A stretch of 64,000 nucleotides of DNA from Escherichia coli 042 (GCF_000027125.1 NC_017626.1); one strand, 5' to 3'; shown: positions 1,776 through 63,044, counted from the first letter of the stretch. Numbers and translations: made by a program. The notes: a model not told the origin generated them from the letters alone.

Positions 1776-3458
1776 TTGTTGTTAAGTCTCGGGGTCAACG
1801 TGTTGACCCCGTTGACGGCCTTCGCGGGAGTGCGGTTGCGCTGGCCTGCCATGATGCGACTCACTTGCATCGGCATTCTGGCGCAGTTCGCGCTCCTGCT
1901 GCTCGCCTTTGGCGTACTGACGTATTGTTTTCTCATCAGCGATTTCTCGGTTATTTATGTCGCCCAACATAGCTACAGCCTGCTGTCGTGGGAACTCAAA
2001 CTGGCAGCGGTGTGGGGCGGTCATGAAGGTTCGCTGCTGCTTTGGGTGCTGCTGCTTTCCGCCTGGAGCGCGCTGTTTGCCTGGCATTATCGGCAGCAAA
2101 CCGATCCGCTATTTCCGCTGACGCTAGCCGTTTTATCTCTCATGCTCGCCGCACTGCTACTGTTTGTGGTGCTGTGGTCCGATCCCTTCGTGCGGATATT
2201 TCCACCAGCAATCGAAGGCCGCGATCTCAATCCGATGCTGCAACATCCCGGTCTTATCTTCCATCCGCCGCTGCTTTATCTCGGCTATGGCGGTTTGATG
2301 GTGGCGGCGAGCGTGGCGCTGGGGAGTTTACTGCGCGGCGAGTTTGATGGTGCCAGCGCCCGAATTTGCTGGCGCTGGGCACTACCTGGCTGGAGTGCAT
2401 TAACGGCGGGGATCATCCTCGGTTCCTGGTGGGCCTATTGCGAACTGGGCTGGGGCGGCTGGTGGTTCTGGGATCCGGTGGAAAACGCCTCTTTATTACC
2501 CTGGCTTTCTGCCACTGCGCTGCTGCACAGTTTATCCCTGACACGCCAGCGGGGGATTTTCCGCCACTGGTCGCTGTTGCTGGCGATAGTTACTCTGATG
2601 CTGTCGCTGCTGGGCACCTTAATTGTCCGTTCTGGCATTCTGGTTTCGGTTCATGCGTTCGCACTGGATAACGTCCGCGCCGTGCCGTTGTTCGGCCTGT
2701 TTGCACTGATTAGCCTTTCGTCTCTGGCTCTGTATGGCTGGCGAGCGCGGGACGGTGGCCCGGCGGTGCGTTTTTCGGGATTATCGCGGGAAATGTTAAT
2801 CCTCGCTACGCTGTTGCTGTTTTGCGCAGTGCTATTGATCGTGCTGGTGGGAACGCTTTATCCGATGATTTACGGCCTGCTGGGCTGGGGACGCCTCTCC
2901 GTTGGCGCGCCGTATTTTAACCGCGCGACGTTACCGTTTGGTCTGTTGATGCTGGTGGTGATTGTGCTGGCGACGTTTGTCTCTGGCAAACGCGTGCACC
3001 TTCCGGCGCTGGTAGCTCATGCGGGCGTGCTGTTATTTGCCGCAGGGATCGTGGTCTCCAGCGTCAGCCGTCAGGAGATCAGCCTGAATTTACAGCCGGG
3101 TCAGCAGGTGACGCTGGCAGGATACACCTTCCGTTTTGAGCGCCTCGATCTGCAAGCCAAAGGCAATTACACCAGCGAAAAAGCGATAGTGGCGCTGTTT
3201 GACCATCAGCAACGCATTGGTGAATTAACGCCGGAGCGGCGTTTTTACGAAGCACGTCGTCAGCAAATGATGGAGCCGTCAATTCGCTGGAATGGTATCC
3301 ATGACTGGTATGCGGTCATGGGCGAGAAAACCGGATCGGATCGTTACGCTTTTCGTTTGTATGTACAATGCGGTGTGCGCTGGATCTGGGGGGGAGGATT
3401 GTTGATGATTGCGGGCGCATTGTTAAGCGGATGGCGGGGGAGGAAGCGCGATGAATAA
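1776..3458 (+). CDS. nrfE: NrfE, CcmF-like cytochrome c heme lyase component
   Basis: 560 aa polytopic membrane ORF with CcmF-like tryptophan-rich region (WGGWWFWDPVENASLLPW); exact start codon uncertain. Confidence 0.9.
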   Translation: MLLSLGVNVLTPLTAFAGVRLRWPAMMRLTCIGILAQFALLLLAFGVLTYCFLISDFSVIYVAQHSYSLLSWELKLAAVWGGHEGSLLLWVLLLSAWSALFAWHYRQQTDPLFPLTLAVLSLMLAALLLFVVLWSDPFVRIFPPAIEGRDLNPMLQHPGLIFHPPLLYLGYGGLMVAASVALGSLLRGEFDGASARICWRWALPGWSALTAGIILGSWWAYCELGWGGWWFWDPVENASLLPWLSATALLHSLSLTRQRGIFRHWSLLLAIVTLMLSLLGTLIVRSGILVSVHAFALDNVRAVPLFGLFALISLSSLALYGWRARDGGPAVRFSGLSREMLILATLLLFCAVLLIVLVGTLYPMIYGLLGWGRLSVGAPYFNRATLPFGLLMLVVIVLATFVSGKRVHLPALVAHAGVLLFAAGIVVSSVSRQEISLNLQPGQQVTLAGYTFRFERLDLQAKGNYTSEKAIVALFDHQQRIGELTPERRFYEARRQQMMEPSIRWNGIHDWYAVMGEKTGSDRYAFRLYVQCGVRWIWGGGLLMIAGALLSGWRGRKRDE

Positions 3459-4768: not shown

Positions 4769-6082
4769 ATGAAAAATATAAAATTCAGCCTGGCCTGGCA
4801 GATTCTGTTTGCTATGGTGCTGGGCATTCTCCTGGGAAGCTACCTGCACTACCATAGCGACAGCCGCGACTGGCTGGTCGTCAATTTGCTCTCTCCGGCG
4901 GGTGATATCTTCATCCATCTGATCAAAATGATTGTTGTGCCGATTGTGATCTCCACGCTGGTGGTGGGTATCGCGGGTGTTGGTGATGCCAAACAGCTCG
5001 GGCGTATTGGCGCGAAAACCATTATTTACTTCGAGGTGATCACCACCGTCGCCATCATTTTGGGGATCACTCTGGCGAACGTCTTCCAGCCCGGTGCCGG
5101 GGTGGATATGTCGCAGCTGGCGACCGTCGATATCTCGAAATATCAGAGCACTACGGAAGCGGTACAAAGCAGTTCCCACGGCATTATGGGCACGATTTTG
5201 TCGCTGGTGCCGACGAACATTGTGGCGTCGATGGCGAAAGGCGAAATGCTGCCGATCATCTTCTTCTCGGTGCTGTTTGGTCTGGGGCTTTCCTCCCTGC
5301 CCGCGACGCATCGTGAACCGCTGGTGACCGTGTTCCGCTCCATCTCTGAAACCATGTTTAAAGTGACTCATATGGTGATGCGTTATGCGCCGGTGGGTGT
5401 GTTTGCGCTGATTGCGGTGACGGTGGCTAACTTTGGTTTCTCGTCTCTGTGGCCACTGGCGAAACTGGTGCTGCTGGTGCATTTCGCCATTCTGTTCTTC
5501 GCGCTGGTAGTGCTGGGAATTGTGGCGCGCCTGTGCGGGTTAAGCGTCTGGATCCTGATTCGTATTCTGAAAGATGAGCTGATTCTGGCGTACTCCACTG
5601 CCAGCTCTGAAAGCGTGCTGCCGCGAATTATTGAGAAGATGGAAGCCTACGGTGCACCGGCGTCGATCACCAGTTTCGTGGTGCCGACCGGTTACTCTTT
5701 TAACCTTGATGGTTCGACGCTGTATCAAAGTATTGCCGCTATTTTCATCGCTCAGCTGTATGGCATTGACCTGTCCATCTGGCAGGAAATCATTCTGGTA
5801 CTGACGCTGATGGTGACCTCGAAAGGGATTGCTGGAGTGCCGGGCGTGTCGTTTGTGGTGTTGCTGGCAACGCTGGGCAGCGTAGGGATCCCGCTGGAAG
5901 GTCTGGCGTTTATTGCCGGTGTTGACCGTATCCTCGACATGGCGCGTACTGCGCTGAACGTGGTGGGTAATGCGCTGGCGGTGCTGGTGATTGCCAAGTG
6001 GGAACACAAATTTGACCGTAAGAAAGCGCTGGCTTATGAGCGCGAAGTGCTGGGCAAATTTGATAAAACTGCGGATCAATAA
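4769..6082 (+). CDS. gltP: Glutamate/aspartate:proton symporter
   Basis: 437 aa polytopic membrane protein recognised as GltP (DAACS family); AGGA-containing RBS upstream. Confidence 0.95.
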   Translation: MKNIKFSLAWQILFAMVLGILLGSYLHYHSDSRDWLVVNLLSPAGDIFIHLIKMIVVPIVISTLVVGIAGVGDAKQLGRIGAKTIIYFEVITTVAIILGITLANVFQPGAGVDMSQLATVDISKYQSTTEAVQSSSHGIMGTILSLVPTNIVASMAKGEMLPIIFFSVLFGLGLSSLPATHREPLVTVFRSISETMFKVTHMVMRYAPVGVFALIAVTVANFGFSSLWPLAKLVLLVHFAILFFALVVLGIVARLCGLSVWILIRILKDELILAYSTASSESVLPRIIEKMEAYGAPASITSFVVPTGYSFNLDGSTLYQSIAAIFIAQLYGIDLSIWQEIILVLTLMVTSKGIAGVPGVSFVVLLATLGSVGIPLEGLAFIAGVDRILDMARTALNVVGNALAVLVIAKWEHKFDRKKALAYEREVLGKFDKTADQ

Positions 6083-6117
6083 TTGAAGATTGCCGGGGAT
6101 ATCCACCCGGCAATGTG

Positions 6118-6388
6118 TGGATGCCTGATGCGACGCTTGCCGCGTCTTATCAGGCCTACGCTAGACTGCGCAATAGCTTGATTTAGGGTGATTTTGTAGG
6201 TCGGATAAGGCGTTTACGCCGCATCCGACATCAATATCTGATGCGACGCTTACCGCGTCTTATCAGGCCTACGCCAGACTGCGCAATAGCCTGATTTAGC
6301 GTGATTTTGTAGGTCGGATAAGGCGTTTACGCCGCATCCGACATCAATGCCTGATGCGACGCTTGTCGCGTCTTATCAGGCCTACCTT
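6118..6388. repeat. REP/BIME cluster: about 2.3 tandem copies of a ~116-120 bp unit, each containing inverted REP palindromes
   Basis: Directly visible repetition of gatgcgacgcttgccgcgtcttatcaggcctac... and gtaggtcggataaggcgtttacgccgcatccgaca; REP consensus-like sequence between convergent gltP and yjcO. Confidence 0.85.
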
Positions 6389-7076
6389 AACCGTTGGTTA
6401 ATTTCTCAAACTCTTCACAACCGGTATCAAACCCTTCCATACAGCTCAGGTTCAGCCAGTGCAGCGCCTTTTGCTTGTTCTTCTCGATAAAACCTTCTTC
6501 ACCGTTTAAGAACATCATTCCCGCCCAGTACTCGGAATAACCGGTTCGGGAAATCGCAGAGCTGCGTTTGAAATACCAGGTTGCCTTGTCATCGTCGGCC
6601 TTAATGCCCACGCCGTTGGCGTAAATCAAACCAAGCAGCATTTGGGCATCGACGGCAGAGTCGTTCTCCAGATCTTCCGAAGCGTTTTCTAACAGCGAAA
6701 TCGCCTTTGGATAATCCGGTTTACCCGCTTGCGTATTTACCAGAATATGCGCCAGCGTTACTTCACCTTCTTTACTCCCCGCTTGCGCTGCTTTCTCTGC
6801 AAGAACTTTTGCTTGTGGATAGTCCAGACTGACCGGATTGGTGATTTTGATCTGCGCCAACAGCGCGCAGGCATCAGCATCACCGCTGTCGGCGGCTTTC
6901 TGTGCCCAATATTCGGCTTTGCTCAAATCGCCGGAGCTAAACCAGCTGTCGGCAAGAAAATATTGTGCGCGTCGGTCCCCGGCCTCTGCTGCCTTTAAAT
7001 ACTGGCTGCCAGGCTCGGAGTCGTTCGCGTGGGCAAAGAATGTCAAAAACAACATCAATGCGATAATTTTTTTCAT
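6387..7076 (-). CDS. yjcO: Sel1-repeat (TPR-like) periplasmic protein
   Basis: 229 aa with signal peptide (MKKIIALMLFLTFFAHA) and repeated Sel1-like motifs; position between gltP and fdhF. Confidence 0.85.
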   Translation of the reverse strand: MKKIIALMLFLTFFAHANDSEPGSQYLKAAEAGDRRAQYFLADSWFSSGDLSKAEYWAQKAADSGDADACALLAQIKITNPVSLDYPQAKVLAEKAAQAGSKEGEVTLAHILVNTQAGKPDYPKAISLLENASEDLENDSAVDAQMLLGLIYANGVGIKADDDKATWYFKRSSAISRTGYSEYWAGMMFLNGEEGFIEKNKQKALHWLNLSCMEGFDTGCEEFEKLTNG

Positions 7077-28978: not shown

Positions 28979-29137
28979 GATGGTGACCTCAGTTAAGAGA
29001 AGCCAGTTAAGTGTAGTTCGAAATTTATACAGATGAGAGGGAAGCCTGATAAGACGCGGTCAGCGTCGCATCAGGCAGTCGGCATCGTTGCCGGATGCGG
29101 CGCGAGCGCCTTATCCGGCTTACCGATCACAATACAA

Positions 29138-43470: not shown

Positions 43471-44379
43471 TTAGCCGGGAAACGTCTGGCGGCGCTGTTG
43501 GCTAAGTTTGCGGTATTGTTGCGGCGACATGCCGACATATTTGCCGAACGTGCTGTAAAAACGACTACTTGAACGAAAGCCTGCCGTCAGGGCAATATCG
43601 AGAATACTTTTATCGGTATCGCTCAGTAACGCGCGAACGTGGTTGATGCGCATCGCGGTTATGTACTGTTTCATCGTCAATTGCATGACCCGCTGGAATA
43701 TCCCCATTGCATAGTTGGCGTTAAGTTTGACGTGCTCAGCCACATCGTTGATGGTCAGCGCCTGATCATAGTTTTCGGCAATAAAGCCCAGCATCTGGCT
43801 AACATAAAATTGCGCATGGCGCGAGACGCTGTTTTTGTGTGTGCGCGAGGTTTTATTGACCAGAATCGGTTCCCAGCCAGAGAGGCTAAATCGCTTGAGC
43901 ATCAGGCCAATTTCATCAATGGCGAGCTGGCGAATTTGCTCGTTCGGACTGTTCAATTCCTGCTGCCAGCGGCGCACTTCAAACGGGCTAAGTTGCTGTG
44001 TGGCCAGTGATTTGATCACCATGCCGTGAGTGACGTGGTTAATCAGGTCTTTATCCAGCGGCCAGGAGAGAAACAGATGCATCGGCAGATTAAAAATCGC
44101 CATGCTCTGACAGGTTCCTGTATCTGTTAGTTGGTGCGGTGTACAGGCCCAGAACAGCGTGATATGACCCTGATTGATATTCACTTTTTCATTGTTGATC
44201 AGGTATTCCACATCGCCATCGAAAGGCACATTCACTTCGACCTGGCCATGCCAGTGGCTGGTGGGCATGATATGCGGTGCGCGAAACTCAATCTCCATCC
44301 GCTGGTATTCCGAATACAGCGACAGCGGGCTGCGGGTCTGTTTTTCGTCGCTGCTGCACATAAACGTATCTGTATTCAT
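43471..44379 (-). CDS. melR: MelR, AraC-family melibiose operon activator
   Basis: 302 aa with C-terminal AraC-type HTH; divergent from melA. Confidence 0.9.
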   Translation of the reverse strand: MNTDTFMCSSDEKQTRSPLSLYSEYQRMEIEFRAPHIMPTSHWHGQVEVNVPFDGDVEYLINNEKVNINQGHITLFWACTPHQLTDTGTCQSMAIFNLPMHLFLSWPLDKDLINHVTHGMVIKSLATQQLSPFEVRRWQQELNSPNEQIRQLAIDEIGLMLKRFSLSGWEPILVNKTSRTHKNSVSRHAQFYVSQMLGFIAENYDQALTINDVAEHVKLNANYAMGIFQRVMQLTMKQYITAMRINHVRALLSDTDKSILDIALTAGFRSSSRFYSTFGKYVGMSPQQYRKLSQQRRQTFPG

Positions 44380-44531
44380 GGATGGCTCTCTTTCCTGGAA
44401 TATCAGAATTATGGCAGGAGTGAGGGAGGATGACTGCGAGTGGGAGCACGGTTTTCACCCTCTTCCCACAGCGGCGAGGGGAGCGTCCGAGCATCATGAG
44501 GCCGAAAACTCTGCTTTTCAGGTAACTTATT

Positions 44532-44581
44532 CCCATAAACTCAGATTTATTGATGCTTCACGTAGGATCTGAGTTTATGGG
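44532..44581 (+). promoter_or_regulatory. MelR operator sites of the melA promoter (inverted pair)
   Basis: cccataaactcagat (44532-44546) and its inverted copy atctgagtttatggg (44567-44581), 20 bp apart, about 80-130 bp upstream of the melA ATG. Confidence 0.7.
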
Positions 44582-44661
44582 AATGCTCAACCTGGAAGCC
44601 GGAGGTTTTCTGCAGATTCGCCTGCCATGATGAAGTTATTCAAGCAAGCCAGGAGATCTGC

Positions 44662-46017
44662 ATGATGTCTGCACCCAAAATTACATTTATCGGCGCTGGT
44701 TCGACGATTTTCGTTAAAAATATTCTTGGTGATGTGTTCCATCGCGAGGCGCTGAAAACGGCGCATATTGCCCTGATGGACATTGATCCCACCCGCCTGG
44801 AAGAGTCGCATATTGTGGTGCGCAAGCTGATGGATTCAGCAGGGGCCAGCGGCAAAATCACCTGCCACACCCAACAGAAAGAAGCCTTACAGGATGCCGA
44901 TTTTGTCGTGGTGGCATTTCAGATTGGCGGTTATGAACCTTGCACGGTGACTGATTTCGAGGTCTGTAAGCGGCATGGTCTGGAACAAACCATTGCCGAT
45001 ACGTTGGGGCCGGGCGGTATTATGCGCGCGCTACGTACCATTCCGCATCTGTGGCAAATTTGCGAGGACATGACGGAAGTCTGCCCCGATGCCACCATGC
45101 TCAACTACGTTAACCCAATGGCGATGAATACCTGGGCGATGTATGCCCGCTATCCGCATATCAAACAGGTAGGGCTGTGCCATTCGGTGCAGGGAACGGC
45201 GGAAGAGCTGGCGCGTGACCTCAATATCGACCCGGCTACGCTGCGTTACCGTTGCGCAGGTATCAACCATATGGCGTTTTACCTGGAACTGGAGCGCAAA
45301 ACCGCCGACGGCAGTTACGTGAATCTCTACCCGGAACTGCTGGCGGCTTATGAAGCAGGGCAGGCACCGAAGCCGAATATTCATGGCAATACTCGCTGCC
45401 AGAATATTGTGCGCTATGAAATGTTCAAAAAGCTGGGCTACTTCGTCACGGAATCGTCAGAACATTTTGCTGAGTACACACCGTGGTTTATTAAGCCAGG
45501 TCGTGAGGATTTGATTGAGCGTTATAAAGTACCGCTGGATGAGTACCCGAAACGCTGCGTCGAGCAGCTGGCGAACTGGCATAAAGAGCTGGAGGAGTAT
45601 AAAAACGCCTCCCGGATTGATATTAAACCGTCACGGGAATATGCCAGCACAATCATGAACGCTATCTGGACTGGCGAGCCGAGTGTGATTTACGGCAACG
45701 TCCGTAACGATGTTTTGATTGATAACCTGCCACAAGGATGTTGCGTGGAAGTAGCCTGTCTGGTTGATGCTAATGGCATTCAGCCGACCAAAGTCGGTAC
45801 GCTACCTTCGCATCTGGCCGCTCTGATGCAAACCAACATCAACGTACAGACGCTGCTGACCGAAGCCATTCTTACGGAAAATCGCGACCGTGTTTACCAC
45901 GCCGCGATGATGGACCCGCATACTGCCGCCGTGCTGGGCATTGACGAAATATATGCTCTTGTTGACGACCTGATTGCTGCCCACGGCGACTGGCTGCCAG
46001 GCTGGTTGCACCGCTAA
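44662..46017 (+). CDS. melA: MelA, alpha-galactosidase (GH4, NAD/Mn-dependent)
   Basis: 451 aa; N-terminal Rossmann motif (KITFIGAGSTIF); GGAG RBS. Confidence 0.95.
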   Translation: MMSAPKITFIGAGSTIFVKNILGDVFHREALKTAHIALMDIDPTRLEESHIVVRKLMDSAGASGKITCHTQQKEALQDADFVVVAFQIGGYEPCTVTDFEVCKRHGLEQTIADTLGPGGIMRALRTIPHLWQICEDMTEVCPDATMLNYVNPMAMNTWAMYARYPHIKQVGLCHSVQGTAEELARDLNIDPATLRYRCAGINHMAFYLELERKTADGSYVNLYPELLAAYEAGQAPKPNIHGNTRCQNIVRYEMFKKLGYFVTESSEHFAEYTPWFIKPGREDLIERYKVPLDEYPKRCVEQLANWHKELEEYKNASRIDIKPSREYASTIMNAIWTGEPSVIYGNVRNDVLIDNLPQGCCVEVACLVDANGIQPTKVGTLPSHLAALMQTNINVQTLLTEAILTENRDRVYHAAMMDPHTAAVLGIDEIYALVDDLIAAHGDWLPGWLHR

Positions 46018-46664
46018 GGGGTTATCGCTTCCGGCGCTCTGGTTATCAAGCCAAAGCGCCGTAGCTGGCGGCAATGCAAGCGAGCGAGGAATATCACCGT
46101 CGTTAATGCGCCAAGCAGCGCGCAGAACATATCGGATTGCGTGTCCCACTGGTCGCCCTGGGTGCCGAGAAAATCATCCGCTCCCTGACCCATTGCCAGC
46201 GCCGCCCACCACTCGATTAATTCATACATCGCGCTTATCGCCAGCGCCACGCAACAGACCAGAAACGCCACCATTTTACGTCCGCGAACGTACATCCCGC
46301 GCACAAGGATCTCACGTGCCACCAGTGCAGGCACCAGCCCCTGGAAAAAATGCCCCAGCTTGTCATACGGATTACGGCTCAACCCCAGCCATTCCTGCAC
46401 CTCAAAACCAACGGGGACTTTCGCGTAGGTGTATTGTCCGCCGACCATCAGGATGATGGCGTGAAAGAAAATGAGCGTATAGAGCAGCGGCGTTAACGGA
46501 TAACGTCTGGCGGTGGCAAGCAGTAGCGGCACGACAATAATCACCGGTGTCACTTCCATCAGCCAGGTGAGTTTGTCATGGGCCGAAATGCCGGTATAAA
46601 TCAGGATTAACGTTAGCGCCAGTGCGCCGGTGTTAAGAATTAACGGCTTGAGTGTGCGGGTCAT
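46014..46664 (-). CDS. yjdF: YjdF, inner membrane protein (C-terminus probably altered)
   Basis: 216 aa hydrophobic ORF; its stop (complement of 46014-46016) overlaps the melA stop codon by 2 nt. Confidence 0.8.
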   Translation of the reverse strand: MTRTLKPLILNTGALALTLILIYTGISAHDKLTWLMEVTPVIIVVPLLLATARRYPLTPLLYTLIFFHAIILMVGGQYTYAKVPVGFEVQEWLGLSRNPYDKLGHFFQGLVPALVAREILVRGMYVRGRKMVAFLVCCVALAISAMYELIEWWAALAMGQGADDFLGTQGDQWDTQSDMFCALLGALTTVIFLARLHCRQLRRFGLITRAPEAITP

Positions 46665-46786
46665 GGTGAGTTCGCAAGTCAGGGAAAATACTGACTATTC
46701 ACCAGCAAGCGTGAAATTACAATCGTAAAAGAGGTGGCCCAGGGGGATCACCTGGCAGCATGCTGCCAGGCGCTGGGCCGAAGAGG

Positions 46787-48433
46787 TTACTTAGTGCAGT
46801 TCGCGCACTGTTTGTTGACGATTTGCTGGAAGAAGTCGTTACCTTTGTCATCGACCAGGATAAACGCCGGGAAATCTTCTACTTCGATTTTCCAGATAGC
46901 TTCCATACCCAGCTCTGGATAAGCGACGCATTCCAGATGCTTGATGCTCTGCTGCGCCAGTACCGCCGCCGGACCGCCGATGCTACCGAGGTAGAAGCCG
47001 CCGTGTTTATGACACGCGTCGGTAACCTGCTGACTGCGGTTACCTTTCGCCAGCATGATCATGCTGCCGCCGTGGGATTGCAGCAGATCCACGTAGGAGT
47101 CCATACGACCTGCGGTAGTTGGGCCAAGTGAACCTGATGGATAACCGGCAGGGGTTTTCGCCGGACCCGCGTAGTAGATCGGGTGATCTTTGATGTACTG
47201 CGGAAGTTCTTTACCGGCGTCAATCAGCTCTTTCAGCTTGGCGTGTGCAATATCTCGACCCACAATAATGGTGCCGGTGAGCGACAAACGAGTGGAAACC
47301 GGATATTGCGAAAGCTGGGCGAGGATCTCTTTCATCGGGCGGTTAAGGTCGACCTTCACCGCTTCGCCTTCACCGGCCTGACGCAGTTCTTGTGGAATGT
47401 ACTGGCCTGGATTGTGTTCCAGTTTTTCGATCCAGATACCTTCGCGGTTGATTTTCGCTTTAATGTTACGGTCAGCGGAGCAGGAGACGCCCATGCCTAC
47501 CGGGCAGGATGCGCCGTGACGTGGCAGACGGATAACGCGAATGTCGTGCGCGAAGTATTTACCGCCAAACTGCGCGCCAAGACCGAGTTTCTGGGCCTCT
47601 TCCAGCAGTTCCTGTTCCAGCTGGACATCGCGGAACGCCTGACCATGTTCGTTCCCTTCCGTCGGCAGCTCATCATAATAGTGAGCGCTTGCTAACTTGA
47701 CGGTTTTCAGGTTGGTTTCCGCAGACGTACCGCCAATCACAAACGCGATATGGTACGGCGGGCAGGCTGCCGTACCGAGGGTACGCATTTTCTCAACGAG
47801 GAAGTTTTTCAGTTTGCCGGGAGTCAGCAGAGCTTTGGTTTCCTGGTAGAGATAGGTTTTGTTGGCAGAGCCGCCGCCTTTAGCGACACAGAGGAATTTG
47901 TACTCATCGCCATCTACCGCGTACAGGTCGATTTGCGCAGGCAGGTTAGTGCCGGTGTTGACCTCTTTGTACATGTCCAGCGCCGCATTCTGTGAATAGC
48001 GCAGGTTATCTTCGATATAGGTGTTATAGACGCCTTTCGACAGCGCTTCTTCATCACCGCCGCCGGTCCACACGCGCTGACCTTTTTTACCGACGATGAT
48101 CGCGGTGCCGGTGTCCTGGCAGGTCGGCAGCACGCCTTTGGCGGCGATTTCGGAGTTTCTTAAGAATTGCAGCGCCACGTACTTGTCGTTTTCGCTGGCT
48201 TCTGGATCTTGAAGAATAGCCGCGACCTGTTTCTGGTGTGCCGGGCGGAGCATGAAAGAAGCGTCGTGAAAGGCTTGCTGCGCCAGCAGAGTCAGGGCTT
48301 CTGGTTCCACTTTCAGGATGGTTTCACCGTCGAAGTCGGCAACGCTAACGTAATCGGAAGTGAGTAGATAGTATTCGGTATTGTCTTTCCCCATCGGGAA
48401 AGGTGCCTGGTAGATAAAGGGTTTGTTTGACAT
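46787..48433 (-). CDS. fumB: FumB, class I (Fe-S) anaerobic fumarate hydratase
   Basis: 548 aa; class I fumarase; immediately downstream of dcuB. Confidence 0.95.
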
Positions 48434-57578: not shown

Positions 57579-59726
57579 TTATTTTTTGCTTTCTTCTTTC
57601 AATACCTTAACGGTATAGCGGCCATCAGCCTGACGGTATGCACCGTGAATATCGGTTTCAAAGCCCGGATAGTGAGCGCCGATTTCACACAGCATCTGCA
57701 GGAACTCCAGAACCGGACGGCTTTCTTCGGTGATCATTTCACCCGGCATTACCAGAGGAACTCCCGGCGGATACGGAAGGATCATATTGGCGTTAATACG
57801 ACCGACCATTTCGTCGAGGTAAACTTCTTCGGTCATACCGTGCAGCTCTTTCTGGAACGCAGCATACGGAGTCATTACCATTGTCGGCAGCACTTCAAAT
57901 GCGCGATACATCAGATCCGGCAGATTGTGGTGAACAATCAGTTTGTGGATATTCTGAGCCAGTTCCTGAATACGCATGTTTTCATAGAATTCAGGATCTT
58001 CACGATACAGAGACGGCAGCATGTTTTTCACACGCAGGTTCAGATCGAACGCACGTTTGAAGTCAGTCAGAGCACGCAGCAGGCTCAGTGCTTTGGTCTT
58101 ATCGATACCGATGCTGAACAGGAACAGCAGGTTATACGGACCGGTTTTCTCAACAACGATGCCATGTTCGTCGAGGTATTTCGCCACGATGCTGGCCGGA
58201 ATACCGAAGTCGCTCATGGTGCCGTCTTTTTCCATCCCCGGAGTCAGCAGGGTGACTTTGATCGGGTCAAGATACATGTGCTCGTTATCGATGTTTTTGA
58301 AGCCGTGCCAGGTGCTGTCAGAACGCAGCGGCCAGCATTCAGTCGTATCGATATGATCCGGCTGCCATACATCAAAGAACCAGCCATCAGATTCCGTTCT
58401 CAGGCGTTTGATCTCTTTACGGAATTTGATCGCACGTTCAATGGAACCGTTGATCAGACGCTTACCAGCATTACCTTTCATCATCGCCGCAGCGGTTTCA
58501 GTGGACGCCACGATACCGTAGTGCGGAGAAGTGGTGGTGTGCATCATGTAGGCTTCGTTAAAGGTTTCTTCGTTTACGTCACCTTTAACGTGGATCATGG
58601 AAGCCTGAGAGAATGCCGCCAGCAGTTTGTGAGTGGACTGGGTTTCGTAAATCACTTTCCCTTCTACACGGCCACCGCTCATACCGCATTTACCTTCGTA
58701 AATCGGTGAGAAGTTGGTGTAAGGCACCCACGCGGAGTCAAAGTGGATGGATTTGACATCCAGTGTTTTCTTGATGAAGTCGGTGTTGTACAGCAGACCA
58801 TCATAGGTAGAGTTAGTAATTACAGCATGTACCGGCCAGGTTGCGTTTGGTGTTTCTTTCACGCGCTTAGCAATGGTAGCGTGCTGGAATTCACTCTGTG
58901 GGATACCACCAAGAATACCGTAAGCGTTACGGGTCGGGCGGAAATAGATTGGCGTAACATCGCTCATCATCATCAGGTGGGTCAGCGATTTGTGGCAGTT
59001 ACGGTCAATCAGAATGGTGCTGCCTGCCGGAGCTGAGTACATACCAACAATTTTGTTCGCAGTGGAAGTACCGTTGGTCACCATGTAGCTGCGGTCTGCG
59101 TTAAAGACGCGAGCAATATACTGTTCTGCTTCTTTGTGTGGACCACTGTGATCCAGCAGAGAACCCAGTTCAGATACTGAAATGGAAATATCAGATTTCA
59201 TGGTGTTCGGACCAAAGAAATCATAGAACAGGCTACCTACCGGGCTTTTCTGGAATGCAGTACCGCCCATGTGACCAGGAGTACAGAAAGTATATTTACC
59301 TTCACGAACATATTTAAACAATGCTTTGGTCAGCGGAGGCAGAATAGTGTTGATATATTCGTCAGTGGTCTGCTTGATCTTGTTAGCAATATCTTCAGCA
59401 GCACCCAGCGCATATTCAAAGAAGCTAATCTGTAAACGCAGGTCATTCAGGCTTACATCGAGAGTGGAATACGTATTAGCGAACGCGTACAACGGCAGGT
59501 TCTCGTTCATTTTGCTAATTTCTTCGCACAGCTCGAGATTATATTTATCCCAGTCAAAAATAACGCCGCACAGACGCGCATTGTTTTCGATCAGTTTTAA
59601 TAAGTCGTCACGGTCGTTCGGGTAAACAATCTGGAAGTTCAGACGTTCAAGCGCGCGATGAAGTTCACGGATGGGTTCTTCTTTAAAATAAACCCCCATG
59701 TGATTCAATATTGCAATAACGTTCAT
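57579..59726 (-). CDS. cadA: CadA, inducible lysine decarboxylase
   Basis: Start chosen at MNVIAILNHMGVYFKEEPIRELH (715 aa); PLP lysine motif STHKLL. Confidence 0.95.
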   Translation of the reverse strand: MNVIAILNHMGVYFKEEPIRELHRALERLNFQIVYPNDRDDLLKLIENNARLCGVIFDWDKYNLELCEEISKMNENLPLYAFANTYSTLDVSLNDLRLQISFFEYALGAAEDIANKIKQTTDEYINTILPPLTKALFKYVREGKYTFCTPGHMGGTAFQKSPVGSLFYDFFGPNTMKSDISISVSELGSLLDHSGPHKEAEQYIARVFNADRSYMVTNGTSTANKIVGMYSAPAGSTILIDRNCHKSLTHLMMMSDVTPIYFRPTRNAYGILGGIPQSEFQHATIAKRVKETPNATWPVHAVITNSTYDGLLYNTDFIKKTLDVKSIHFDSAWVPYTNFSPIYEGKCGMSGGRVEGKVIYETQSTHKLLAAFSQASMIHVKGDVNEETFNEAYMMHTTTSPHYGIVASTETAAAMMKGNAGKRLINGSIERAIKFRKEIKRLRTESDGWFFDVWQPDHIDTTECWPLRSDSTWHGFKNIDNEHMYLDPIKVTLLTPGMEKDGTMSDFGIPASIVAKYLDEHGIVVEKTGPYNLLFLFSIGIDKTKALSLLRALTDFKRAFDLNLRVKNMLPSLYREDPEFYENMRIQELAQNIHKLIVHHNLPDLMYRAFEVLPTMVMTPYAAFQKELHGMTEEVYLDEMVGRINANMILPYPPGVPLVMPGEMITEESRPVLEFLQMLCEIGAHYPGFETDIHGAYRQADGRYTVKVLKEESKK

Positions 59727-59805
59727 AGTCATATCTCCAGGTAAAAAAGGCCCCTCCCAACACATGGGACAAAATGAAAGGAGGAGCCTCGGAAAATACT
59801 TTTAA

Positions 59806-61140
59806 TTAATGTGCGTTAGACGCGGTGTGGTTATCCATTGAGTGGCTCTGGCGCTCGTGCATTTTGCGAGCGTAGAACATCAGAATAATCAGGCTGACGA
59901 TGAAGGTACCTGCCAGCTCGAAGGAGCTTGCGCCCATCAGCGCGATGAAGCAGAACACGCAACCCAGTACAGAGCAGATCAGGCTGACAAAGTTGCGGAT
60001 GTTAACGCCTTCAAAACGAATCAGGTCAACGCAAGAGTAGAAGTACGGCAGCATAGTCAGCAGTACTGCGATACCGGTCAGTTCACCGAACAGGTCAGAT
60101 GCTTTACCACCGGCAGAGTTCATCAGAGTGATGAGGATCATCAGGGCAGTCATTTTCACTGCAGCCAGCAGCAGACCTTTTTTCGGAATACCGTTGCTGT
60201 CGACTTCACCATAAACTTTCGGGAAGTTACCGTCGTTAGCGGCACGTACACCTGCCTGGCCTACCAACATCATCCAGGAGCCCAGAGAAGTCAGGCACGC
60301 AAAGGCGGTGAATGCAGAAACCAGCGGCGCAGCCCAGTTACCGAGGATAGTTGAAGCACTGATTGCAAACGGAGCACCGGAAGCTGCCATTACAGAAGAC
60401 GGATACATACCGGAAAGCACCTGAGTCGCAGCGATATAAACAATACCTGCTAAACCAGTACCCAGCATGGTTGCCAGCGGAACGGTACGTTTCGGGTTTT
60501 TAACCATACCAGTACTTACTGCTGCGGATTCAACACCCACGAAGGCCCACAGGCAGAGCAGAATACTTTTAATGATCGCATGACCATCAGTGGTATCCGC
60601 AGTATTCCAGTTAGCTGCATAAGTTGCAGCATCAAACCAATGCCAGCCAACAATAGCAGTCATCACCACAGGAATAAGAACCAGCACCAGACCAATAGTG
60701 GTTAAACGGCTTACCCAGGTACCGCCGAGCATATTTACAAAGGTAAATACCCAGACGATAGCAATACAGGCGATACCCGCCGGAACAGGATCATTTAATA
60801 CTGGGAAGAAGGTGGAAAGATAAGATACAGCGGTAATACCAATCGCCAGGTTACCAATCCAGTTAGCATGGTAATAAAGAACACCTGTCTGAAAACCAAA
60901 TGCAGGGGAAATTTCTCCGGCATAAGCAATTGGGCCACCTTGTTGCGGGTTTTTTGTTGCCAGTCGGGCATATACATACGCCAGCGACATTGCACCAATA
61001 ATAGAGATAATCCAACCCCAGATAGCAATACCACCGATACTTGCTAGGTTCGCAGGTAATAATGCAATACCGCTCCCCATCATATTACCGGCAACCACAC
61101 CGGTACAGGCAAATAGCCCGATCTTCTTGGCAGAACTCAT
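59806..61140 (-). CDS. cadB: CadB, lysine:cadaverine antiporter
   Basis: 444 aa APC-family transporter upstream of cadA. Confidence 0.95.
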   Translation of the reverse strand: MSSAKKIGLFACTGVVAGNMMGSGIALLPANLASIGGIAIWGWIISIIGAMSLAYVYARLATKNPQQGGPIAYAGEISPAFGFQTGVLYYHANWIGNLAIGITAVSYLSTFFPVLNDPVPAGIACIAIVWVFTFVNMLGGTWVSRLTTIGLVLVLIPVVMTAIVGWHWFDAATYAANWNTADTTDGHAIIKSILLCLWAFVGVESAAVSTGMVKNPKRTVPLATMLGTGLAGIVYIAATQVLSGMYPSSVMAASGAPFAISASTILGNWAAPLVSAFTAFACLTSLGSWMMLVGQAGVRAANDGNFPKVYGEVDSNGIPKKGLLLAAVKMTALMILITLMNSAGGKASDLFGELTGIAVLLTMLPYFYSCVDLIRFEGVNIRNFVSLICSVLGCVFCFIALMGASSFELAGTFIVSLIILMFYARKMHERQSHSMDNHTASNAH

Positions 61141-61505
61141 GCTCTTCTCCTAATTTCATTTTTGAATTTGGAGTCCGGGTCATGATGTATAACTATTTCC
61201 TGACCAGACCAAACTGGCGCTAAGAATACTCACGAAAAAAGGATTAATCCTAAAGATTAGGTGAAATAACACAAAAGTTTCTGTAAGTGAGAACTTGAGG
61301 TTTTTTATTAACACATCAGGATCGCAAGTTGATATCATGAAAAGATAAACATTCAATGTTTACAATGGATTGCGGGACATTTTCTGGTTAAATTTATGTA
61401 ATAAAAATTATGCGGCAAATAAATTGCCGCAACATATTATACCAACAGAAACATACAAAAACTCAACAATAAATATTGCCGAGCATAAATCAACCCGGGA
61501 GTTAC
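61141..61505 (-). promoter_or_regulatory. AT-rich cadBA promoter/operator region (CadC and H-NS target)
   Basis: 365-bp AT-rich intergenic region between cadC stop and cadB start; individual sites not resolved. Confidence 0.55.
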
Positions 61506-63044
61506 TTATTCTGAAGCGAGAAATTTGTCGAGATAAGGTACAACATAAGGAACAGAAGTCTGGAATATACCATTTTCAATCCAGTAAAGGGTGTTTGCCC
61601 CTGGGCGTAAATTAAAGGCGGTGAGATATGCATCAGCTGCTTCCCGGTTCATCCCCTTCATTTCATAAACCTTGCCAAGCAACACATAATTTAGCCAGGA
61701 CATTTCAAGATCAATGCCAGTATTTATCGCCTGGTAAGACTCATCTGTTTTACCTTTTACCAGAGCACTGACCGCTTTTATTTGATATATAATGGACAGG
61801 TTATTCAATTCCGGTAGTGTAACAATGTTATCTATTTCTGTGTTCAGTGCTGCTAATTGTTTTTCATCTAAAGGATGTTGAGAATGGCGCACGATATCAA
61901 CTAATGCTTTTTCTGCTCTCGCGTAGGTAAATTCTGGGGATGATTGAACAATCTCACCTAATAATTCACTGGCACGGTTCAATGATTTATCATCGCCATG
62001 CAGTAAATAATCATGTGCCTGATAAAAATTAGTTAATAACGCACCACGATGAGGCAAAATTTGCTGGAGCATCTCCTGCATTCGTTGTGGCCACGGTTGG
62101 TTTAACGCTTTTGATAAACTCTGGAGTAAATCATTTTGAATCGCCAGCTGATTACCGTTAGTGATGACATAACGTTTATCCAGCATGGTTGAACCATCTG
62201 CATTGTCTACCAATTTTACCGACATAAAGCATTGTTGAGCACGGTATTGGCGCTGATTAACAAACGCAATAGATAATGTTTTACCGGAACTGCTCGGTTC
62301 ATCAATGTTGTAGTTGATTTTGTCATGCACCATAAAGGTGGAGAAGGTGTTAAGTGATGTCGCCACCAAATCACCCACGCCTATCGCGTAAGAGAGCTGA
62401 TACGGGGAACTCCAGCTGTTACAACTTTTATTTACCATATTAATGTCAATATCGCGTGGATTGAGCAAAATACGCGATTTGCTCATCGGAAGACGTGTAT
62501 CAAGACTTGAAAACGCTACCAGTGCTACACAGATACCTAACGACAACAGGAAAAAAAACCATACCCAAAAGGTAGTGAATCGTTTGCTTTTAACTGGGGA
62601 TTGTTCAGGTGGCGTTGCGGTGTTTTGAATGTTAAGACTGTGGGAGGGAGAATCTGTGTCAGGAACCGCCTCTGGTATAGGGGGAGGCGAAGATAGCATT
62701 ATTTCCTCTCCCTCTTCTTCGCTGTACCAGATAACCGGCACCATTAATTTATAGCCGCGCTTTGGTACAGTAGCGATATAGACAGGACTATCTTCATCAT
62801 TATCTTTTAATGACTTACGTAGTTCTGAGATACTCTGCGTCACAACGTGATTGGTGACAATACTTCTCTTCCAGACATTATCGATAAGTTCATCCCTGCT
62901 AAGTACTTCGCCACTGTGTTGAGCAAAGAAAACCAGAAGATCGATTAATCTCGGCTCAAGGGTAAGTTGACGCCCATTGCGGCTAATTTGGTTTATGGAC
63001 GGAGTAACAAGCCATTCGCCAACGCGAACTACAGGTTGTTGCAT
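61506..63044 (-). CDS. cadC: CadC, membrane-integrated ToxR-like activator of cadBA
   Basis: 512 aa; N-terminal winged-helix DNA-binding domain, single TM segment, periplasmic sensor domain. Confidence 0.95.
   Translation of the reverse strand: MQQPVVRVGEWLVTPSINQISRNGRQLTLEPRLIDLLVFFAQHSGEVLSRDELIDNVWKRSIVTNHVVTQSISELRKSLKDNDEDSPVYIATVPKRGYKLMVPVIWYSEEEGEEIMLSSPPPIPEAVPDTDSPSHSLNIQNTATPPEQSPVKSKRFTTFWVWFFFLLSLGICVALVAFSSLDTRLPMSKSRILLNPRDIDINMVNKSCNSWSSPYQLSYAIGVGDLVATSLNTFSTFMVHDKINYNIDEPSSSGKTLSIAFVNQRQYRAQQCFMSVKLVDNADGSTMLDKRYVITNGNQLAIQNDLLQSLSKALNQPWPQRMQEMLQQILPHRGALLTNFYQAHDYLLHGDDKSLNRASELLGEIVQSSPEFTYARAEKALVDIVRHSQHPLDEKQLAALNTEIDNIVTLPELNNLSIIYQIKAVSALVKGKTDESYQAINTGIDLEMSWLNYVLLGKVYEMKGMNREAADAYLTAFNLRPGANTLYWIENGIFQTSVPYVVPYLDKFLASE

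Follow-up and report, generated by a model that had tools for sequence, protein, structure and literature searches.

The mel locus in the window, which here means the whole 64-kb stretch of Escherichia coli 042 DNA that was analyzed, lacks melB and very probably represents an old and widespread "B2-type" allele that arose by a single deletion early in the genus Escherichia. In this allele, melA would form a MelR-controlled unit of its own, whose substrate likely enters the cell through LacY. An identical junction between melA and yjdF was found in about a quarter of complete E. coli genomes, in the type strain of the species and, in homologous form, in three other Escherichia species, and the genes retained at the locus have remained under strong purifying selection.

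Structure of the melA/yjdF junction

The features of the locus are listed in Table 1. When aligned with K-12 MG1655, the window matches at 98.6% from 44001 to 46017, up to the last base of the melA stop codon, and the match resumes at yjdF codon 209 (46038-47000, 97.7%). Absent between these two homologous blocks are 1,665 bp of K-12 DNA, namely the 102-nt melA-melB spacer with its hairpin, melB itself, the 138-nt spacer between melB and yjdF, which contains a REP element, and the stop codon of yjdF. The filler standing in their place reads GGGGTTATCGCTTCCGGCGC. According to the ORF map, melA and yjdF overlap by 4 nt and no intergenic DNA remains between them. Having lost its own stop codon, the yjdF frame continues to the melA stop, so that YjdF has 216 residues instead of 209: the K-12 protein ends in ...GLITG and the window protein in ...GLITRAPEAITP (i.e., ...GLIT-RAPEAITP), each followed by the stop codon.

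Table 1. Features of the mel locus and its junction, in window coordinates
Feature	Position	Strand	Description and basis
melR	43471-44379	-	AraC-family activator of the mel promoter; ORF, intact, 302 aa
melR-melA divergent control region	44380-44661		MelR operators and melA promoter
melA	44662-46017	+	ORF, 451 aa; stop TAA at 46015-46017
yjdF	46014-46664	-	ORF, 651 nt, 216 aa; stop TAG, the reverse complement of 46014-46016
Altered YjdF C-terminus	46017-46040	-	G209R followed by seven residues, APEAITP
Junction filler	46018-46037		20 nt in place of 1,665 bp of K-12 DNA; alignment to K-12
Stem-loop directly after the melA stop	46032-46061	+	Filler CCGGCGCTCTGG pairs with yjdF coding sequence CCAAAGCGCCG; no T-run follows
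fumB	46787-48433	-	Conserved right-hand neighbor; ORF, context

The K-12 locus resembles that of the window in MelR, in the control region and in its neighbors adiA and fumB. It differs in having the hairpin spacer, melB (473 aa), the REP spacer and the shorter YjdF. The melAB operon of K-12 is a two-gene unit under MelR control; in the window, only melA follows the promoter region. No MelB-like coding sequence was found in the 64 kb when K-12 MelB was used as a tblastn query (best E = 0.37), and the K-12 DNA replaced at the junction finds matches within the window only in REP copies. These copies lie at 6191-6234, 6304-6347 and 29089-29118 and are ~86% identical to the REP of the K-12 melB-yjdF spacer.

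The structural part of the original prediction is thus upheld. Its claims that melB is absent between melA and yjdF, and that the two stop codons overlap with nothing between the genes, agree with the K-12 alignment, the ORF coordinates and the tblastn search of the 64 kb. YjdF had been read as 216 codons against about 209, which suggested deletion of its native 3' end, and the native stop is indeed gone. The view that melA, melR and the MelR operators are intact is likewise borne out by a full-length melA ORF with complete GH4 domains, by identity of MelR to its K-12 counterpart and by near identity of the control region.

The melB-less allele is common in E. coli

A 1.3-kb query spanning the junction was found contiguous in 1,263 of 5,426 complete RefSeq E. 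coli genomes. K-12 melB has a match in 4,136 of the same genomes, leaving 1,290 without any match. Since the number of genomes without melB is essentially equal to the number of junction carriers, melB has not been relocated in these strains. Nine carriers were fetched (NT1F34, AVS0756, Ecol_AZ153, GABEEC10, 2013C-4282, APEC O2:K1:H4, O139:H1 W13-16, GF43 and the type strain), and all nine are annotated with the same layout of melR, melA and a 651-nt yjdF overlapping melA. Beyond the fact that our view of this genome is limited to 64 kb, nothing speaks for a melB residing elsewhere or for a junction produced by assembly collapse, and with so many complete genomes free of melB and the junction recurring in finished, independently assembled chromosomes, either explanation is vanishingly improbable.

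The E. coli type strain, ATCC 11775 (= DSM 30083T), carries the same junction (NZ_CP033092.2, 4391763-4394956) and belongs to phylogroup B2 (PMC4334874). Its locus is like that of the window in melR, melA, the 651-nt yjdF, the 4-nt overlap and the junction, with the same filler, GGGGT(A/T)ATCGCTTCCGGCGCTCT, and the same RAPEAITP tail. The bases immediately to the right of the junction differ, being GGTGATT in the B2 type and GGTTATC, the K-12 type, in the window. In the same type-strain locus, alsC, which encodes the permease of a D-allose ABC transporter, carries an annotated internal stop (locus positions 5596-6576). Touchon et al. (2009; PMC2617782) counted melB among the genes that B2 strains, without exception, specifically lack, and Touchon et al. 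(2020; PMC7314097) reported a negative association of phylogroup B2 with the melibiose pathway. The absence of melB in B2 is therefore already published, and the allele of the window is a known, common and ordinary one. It also occurs in strains that are not B2-like, e.g., NT1F34 and O139:H1.

These counts bear on how the junction is to be framed. The original prediction had implicitly treated the loss as a strain-level event measured against K-12 as wild type, and this framing is contradicted by the recurrence of the identical junction in so many complete genomes, in the type strain, and beyond E. coli in three further species of the genus. It had also allowed for the RAPEAITP tail and the overlap being standard in other genomes that keep melB elsewhere; the tail and overlap are indeed standard, and the relocated melB is not found in any of the 1,290 genomes. 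A private, recent deletion in the window strain from a K-12-like ancestor would fit the presence of melB in K-12 and the clean replacement at the junction. It is nevertheless extremely improbable, given that the junction is shared so widely and extends to three other species at species-level divergence.

The flanks of the junction were compared among haplotypes. The window melA is 1.25% from K-12 versus 2.2-2.9% from B2, and the window flanks resemble A, B1 and E haplotypes more closely than B2 ones. The window contains no phylotyping marker. Between melB-less and melB-bearing haplotypes, no variable site separates the two groups in the last 400 nt of melA or the first 400 nt of yjdF. Thus, the flanks have been shuffled by recombination as far as the breakpoints themselves, and for the same reason trees built from the flanks can neither give the age of the allele within E. 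coli nor reveal its route of acquisition here. The best complete RefSeq E. coli matches to the window reach 98.9-99.1% over stretches of 17-24 kb, and the best-matching strain varies by segment, so that the window appears to come from an E. coli lineage that has seldom been sampled. Farther along the window, cadC, cadB and cadA are intact (~57579-63044), so its source is not a Shigella.

Age and polarity of the deletion

Loci from other species were collected by scanning species-representative genomes with MelA. The resulting list left out E. albertii, E. fergusonii, E. marmotae and E. ruysiae, and it also left out the E. coli type strain, which has melA, so that absence from the list is uninformative. 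A homologous junction with a 216-aa YjdF was found in E. whittamii Sa2BVA5, "E. coli" SCPM-O-B-8794 and Escherichia sp. E1V33, of which SCPM-O-B-8794 is, judged by its divergence, another species. These three loci have 91.8-93.4% nucleotide identity to the window over 11 kb. Their fillers differ from that of the window at 2-3 of 23 positions, and the between-species differences in the codons of the YjdF tail are synonymous except for one I-to-T change in Escherichia sp. E1V33. Judging from flank dS of 0.2-0.45, the deletion predates the divergence of E. coli from the cryptic-clade species.

In Citrobacter and Kluyvera, the gene order is melA-melB-yjdF(-fumB), and YjdF has 205-210 residues ending in approximately GLITG, GLITVN or LIAG. 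Because these genera keep it, the arrangement that includes melB and a ~209-aa YjdF is the ancestral one at the genus level, and the deletion is derived. Two Kluyvera loci, those of K. ascorbata and Kluyvera genomosp. 3, have yjdF frames that end early (183 and 180 aa) in unrelated tails, as if frameshifted.

The melB gene has also been lost in five Citrobacter species representatives, including C. youngae CCUG 30791 (loci L010, L019, L024, L026 and L066; ~6353-6425 in each locus). As in the window, these loci of the Citrobacter freundii complex retain melA, followed directly by convergent yjdF and fumB. Unlike in the window, melA is followed by ~55-65 nt with a REP-like hairpin, and YjdF is the native 210-aa form with its own stop and no overlap. 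The different junction indicates that the loss in Citrobacter is an independent event.

The Escherichia sp. E1V33 locus is a mosaic relative to the window, at 6.3% in melR, 5.3% in melA, 3.9% in yjdF and 3.0% in fumB, which suggests recombination between species on the fumB side.

The origin of the allele can be outlined as follows. One deletion of ~1.65 kb would have occurred early in Escherichia, once this genus had separated from the Citrobacter, Kluyvera and Salmonella lineages and before E. coli parted from the cryptic-clade species. It would have taken both spacers, melB and the yjdF stop codon, leaving a yjdF frame 7 codons longer that ends on a stop overlapping the melA stop. The allele would since have been inherited and moved between backgrounds by homologous recombination, becoming essentially fixed in phylogroup B2 and sporadic elsewhere.

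Filler and stem-loop at the junction

A homologous filler was observed in B2 strains of E. coli, in the type strain, and in E. whittamii, locus L004 and Escherichia sp. E1V33 (L081). A fuzzy search allowing at most 6 errors found no source for it in the DNA that it replaces, as represented by K-12, MOD1-EC7003 and two Citrobacter loci. Derivation of the filler from the K-12 melA-melB hairpin was considered and is unproven; the sole likeness is the 9-mer TTCCGGCGC, which equals the right arm of that hairpin. This 9-mer is not significant against the whole 1,665 nt (1,277 of 2,000 shuffles score as well) and is marginal against the 102-nt spacer alone (207 of 5,000 shuffles).

Together with the adjoining yjdF coding sequence, the filler forms the stem-loop listed in Table 1. 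The minimum free energy is -51.1 kcal/mol for a 101-nt context (z = -3.3). Across 8 melB-less sequences representing 4 species, none of the 11 core pairs varies, hence no covariation is seen. Since the pairs are invariant and the 3' arm is at the same time under constraint as part of the yjdF reading frame, no functional claim is made for the structure, and a role as the melA 3' end or as a stabilizer is something we infer only. A pattern scan found no terminator at the melA/yjdF junction. Given that neither a spacer nor a canonical terminator lies between the genes, induced melA transcription would probably read antisense into yjdF.

The retained genes are under functional constraint

The MelR protein of the window is identical to that of K-12, and the melR-melA control region is nearly identical; conservation of the operator-like blocks ATTCCCATAAACTCAGAT / GATCTGAGTTT..GGGAAT extends to the type strain and E. 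whittamii. MelA is identical to the K-12 protein at 448 of 451 residues (99.3%), the changes being E77Q, K315N and G351V, and has the GH4 domains at full length (Pfam PF02056 Glyco_hydro_4, E = 1.1e-81; PF11975 Glyco_hydro_4C, E = 5.6e-58). By these domain matches, melA of the window is a GH4 alpha-galactosidase gene, the sole gene left of the former melAB operon. YjdF matches Pfam PF09997 DUF2238 over residues 42-182 (E = 1.5e-58, model positions 1-140 of 140), so that its altered tail (residues 209-216) falls outside the domain. Going by this match, the yjdF product is a DUF2238 inner-membrane protein in a 216-aa form.

Among melB-less lineages, at dS up to 0.45, dN/dS is 0.014-0.028 for melA and 0.013-0.039 for melR; for yjdF it is 0.04-0.10 across species. 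All three genes have been kept by strong purifying selection throughout the melB-less history. Both melA and melR are intact in all nine melB-less E. coli loci fetched and in all three loci of other Escherichia, and 5,399 of 5,426 complete E. coli genomes have melA. In strain SC516, ISApl1 lies inside melA. The yjdF region (window 46041-46664 and its homologues) is a diversity hot spot in E. coli, up to 5.8% nucleotide difference from K-12 versus ~2% for melA and fumB; notwithstanding this diversity, purifying selection still acts on the gene.

Melibiose use without melB

The type strain ATCC 11775 / DSM 30083T is melibiose-positive on API 20E, on OmniLog and on M9 with melibiose, and it is also lactose-positive and raffinose-positive (PMC4334874). 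Strains with the melB-less allele can therefore still use melibiose, as shown for the type strain. LacY transports melibiose too, and a transport-null host, DW2, is obtained only when melB and lacZY are both deleted (PMC6091025). Because LacY carries melibiose and the melB-less type strain is positive for both lactose and melibiose, uptake in carriers of the allele is most likely through LacY. The lac region lies outside the window. DW2, the host used for MelB transport assays, is like the window in being melA+ and melB-, which indicates that melA can stand alone, and its phenotype shows that entry of melibiose without melB depends on another permease (PMC6091025). Unlike natural carriers, DW2 is without lacY and takes up no melibiose, whereas the type strain is lactose-positive. 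With the raffinose-positive phenotype in mind, growth of the type strain on melibiose could be explained by a raf-type permease instead of LacY. The classical figure for melibiose-positive E. coli is 75% (quoted in PMC11546641).

These phenotypes also bear on whether the mel locus is a decaying remnant, with melA and melR drifting toward pseudogenes after loss of the transporter. The frequent inactivation of melB in E. coli suggests relaxed selection on melibiose use in some niches, as such decay would have it. Decay is nonetheless very improbable in view of the low dN/dS of both genes over substantial synonymous divergence, their intactness in every melB-less locus fetched, the near-universal presence of melA and the growth of the type strain on melibiose. 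Furthermore, a 2026 preprint reports that melA transposon mutants are less fit in the mouse gut; of the four strains in its panel three are B2, and the affected strain is unnamed. The locus is better described as a single-gene melA unit that would still be controlled by MelR.

Proposed repeated loss and re-spread of melB

The melB copies that exist resemble one another unusually closely. Identity to K-12 of at least 99% was found for melB in 4,127 of 4,136 genomes, compared with 2,926 of 5,399 for melA and 2,919 of 5,425 for fumB. Among seven melB-bearing loci, mean pairwise dS is 0.022 for melB (maximum 0.036), 0.074 for melA and 0.093 for fumB; melB is thus 2-4 times less diverse at synonymous sites than its flanks, where dS reaches 0.16. 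In Escherichia sp. MOD1-EC7003, melB is 0.49% from K-12 and the flanks are 3.3-4.0% away, and the tract of low divergence coincides with the melB segment that the deletion removes. Strain MEC2025-PR has a B2-type MelA protein together with melB. The melB-yjdF spacer and yjdF 3' end of this strain form a divergent patch, with 19 and 16 mismatches per 200 nt against K-12 (alignment ~2900-3100), and this patch is in no other sampled sequence or outgroup.

Inactivation of melB is also frequent. In three of the seven sampled melB-bearing genomes, ETEC H10407, PK8241 and 2014C-3011, melB is broken by IS1414, IS1A or an internal stop. The lesions seen in melB-bearing E. coli comprise two copies of IS1414, IS1A, an internal stop (in a strain that also has a yjdF frameshift), ISEc35 and IS1B. 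Any match to melB was found in 4,136 genomes and a match of at least 80% in one place in 4,060, so that 76 genomes have only a partial or split melB. The low synonymous diversity of melB relative to its flanks and its frequent disruption by insertion sequences suggest, from comparison of these sequences, that melB has been repeatedly lost and recently re-spread by recombination.

A tentative extension of this idea is that the melB-less state is resident or ancestral within E. coli, and that K-12-like melB derives from one recently reintroduced or swept allele that spread through the melA and yjdF flanks. The uniformity of melB compared with melA and fumB, its low dS, the K-12-like melB between distant flanks in MOD1-EC7003, the pairing of a B2-type MelA with melB in MEC2025-PR and the melB-less junction common to three other species all point this way. 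The codon-level analysis, however, covers only seven melB-bearing loci, and between K-12 and O157:H7 melB has diverged as much as melA (dS 0.024 and 0.026). The same pattern would follow from a sweep within a melB-bearing allele of long residence, no donor lineage has been identified, and outgroup synteny makes the melB-bearing state ancestral at the genus level. It may be, although we consider it somewhat unlikely, that lacking melB has been the resident condition of E. coli and its sister species over the long term, and that melB coalesced recently, recombines into melB-less backgrounds, including that of another Escherichia species, and is repeatedly knocked out by IS elements, by stop codons and, in Citrobacter, by a separate deletion. 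If this were true, the Na+/melibiose symporter would be under fluctuating or antagonistic selection, with melA kept because LacY can supply its substrate.

Implications for the mel locus

Nothing here is surprising to the population genomics of E. coli, and only three points are modestly new: several species carry the junction, melA and melR stay strongly constrained where melB is missing, and melB copies coalesce at shallow depth. For annotation, K-12 should not be taken as the wild type for the mel locus; a 216-aa YjdF and overlapping stop codons are a normal allele and not a lesion. A missing melB is no predictor of a melibiose-negative phenotype, as the melB-less type strain grows on melibiose. 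The mel locus is best regarded as a presence/absence polymorphism with a deletion allele common to several Escherichia species, in which the transporter appears to have been repeatedly lost and re-spread, and the enzyme and its regulator are under strong constraint.
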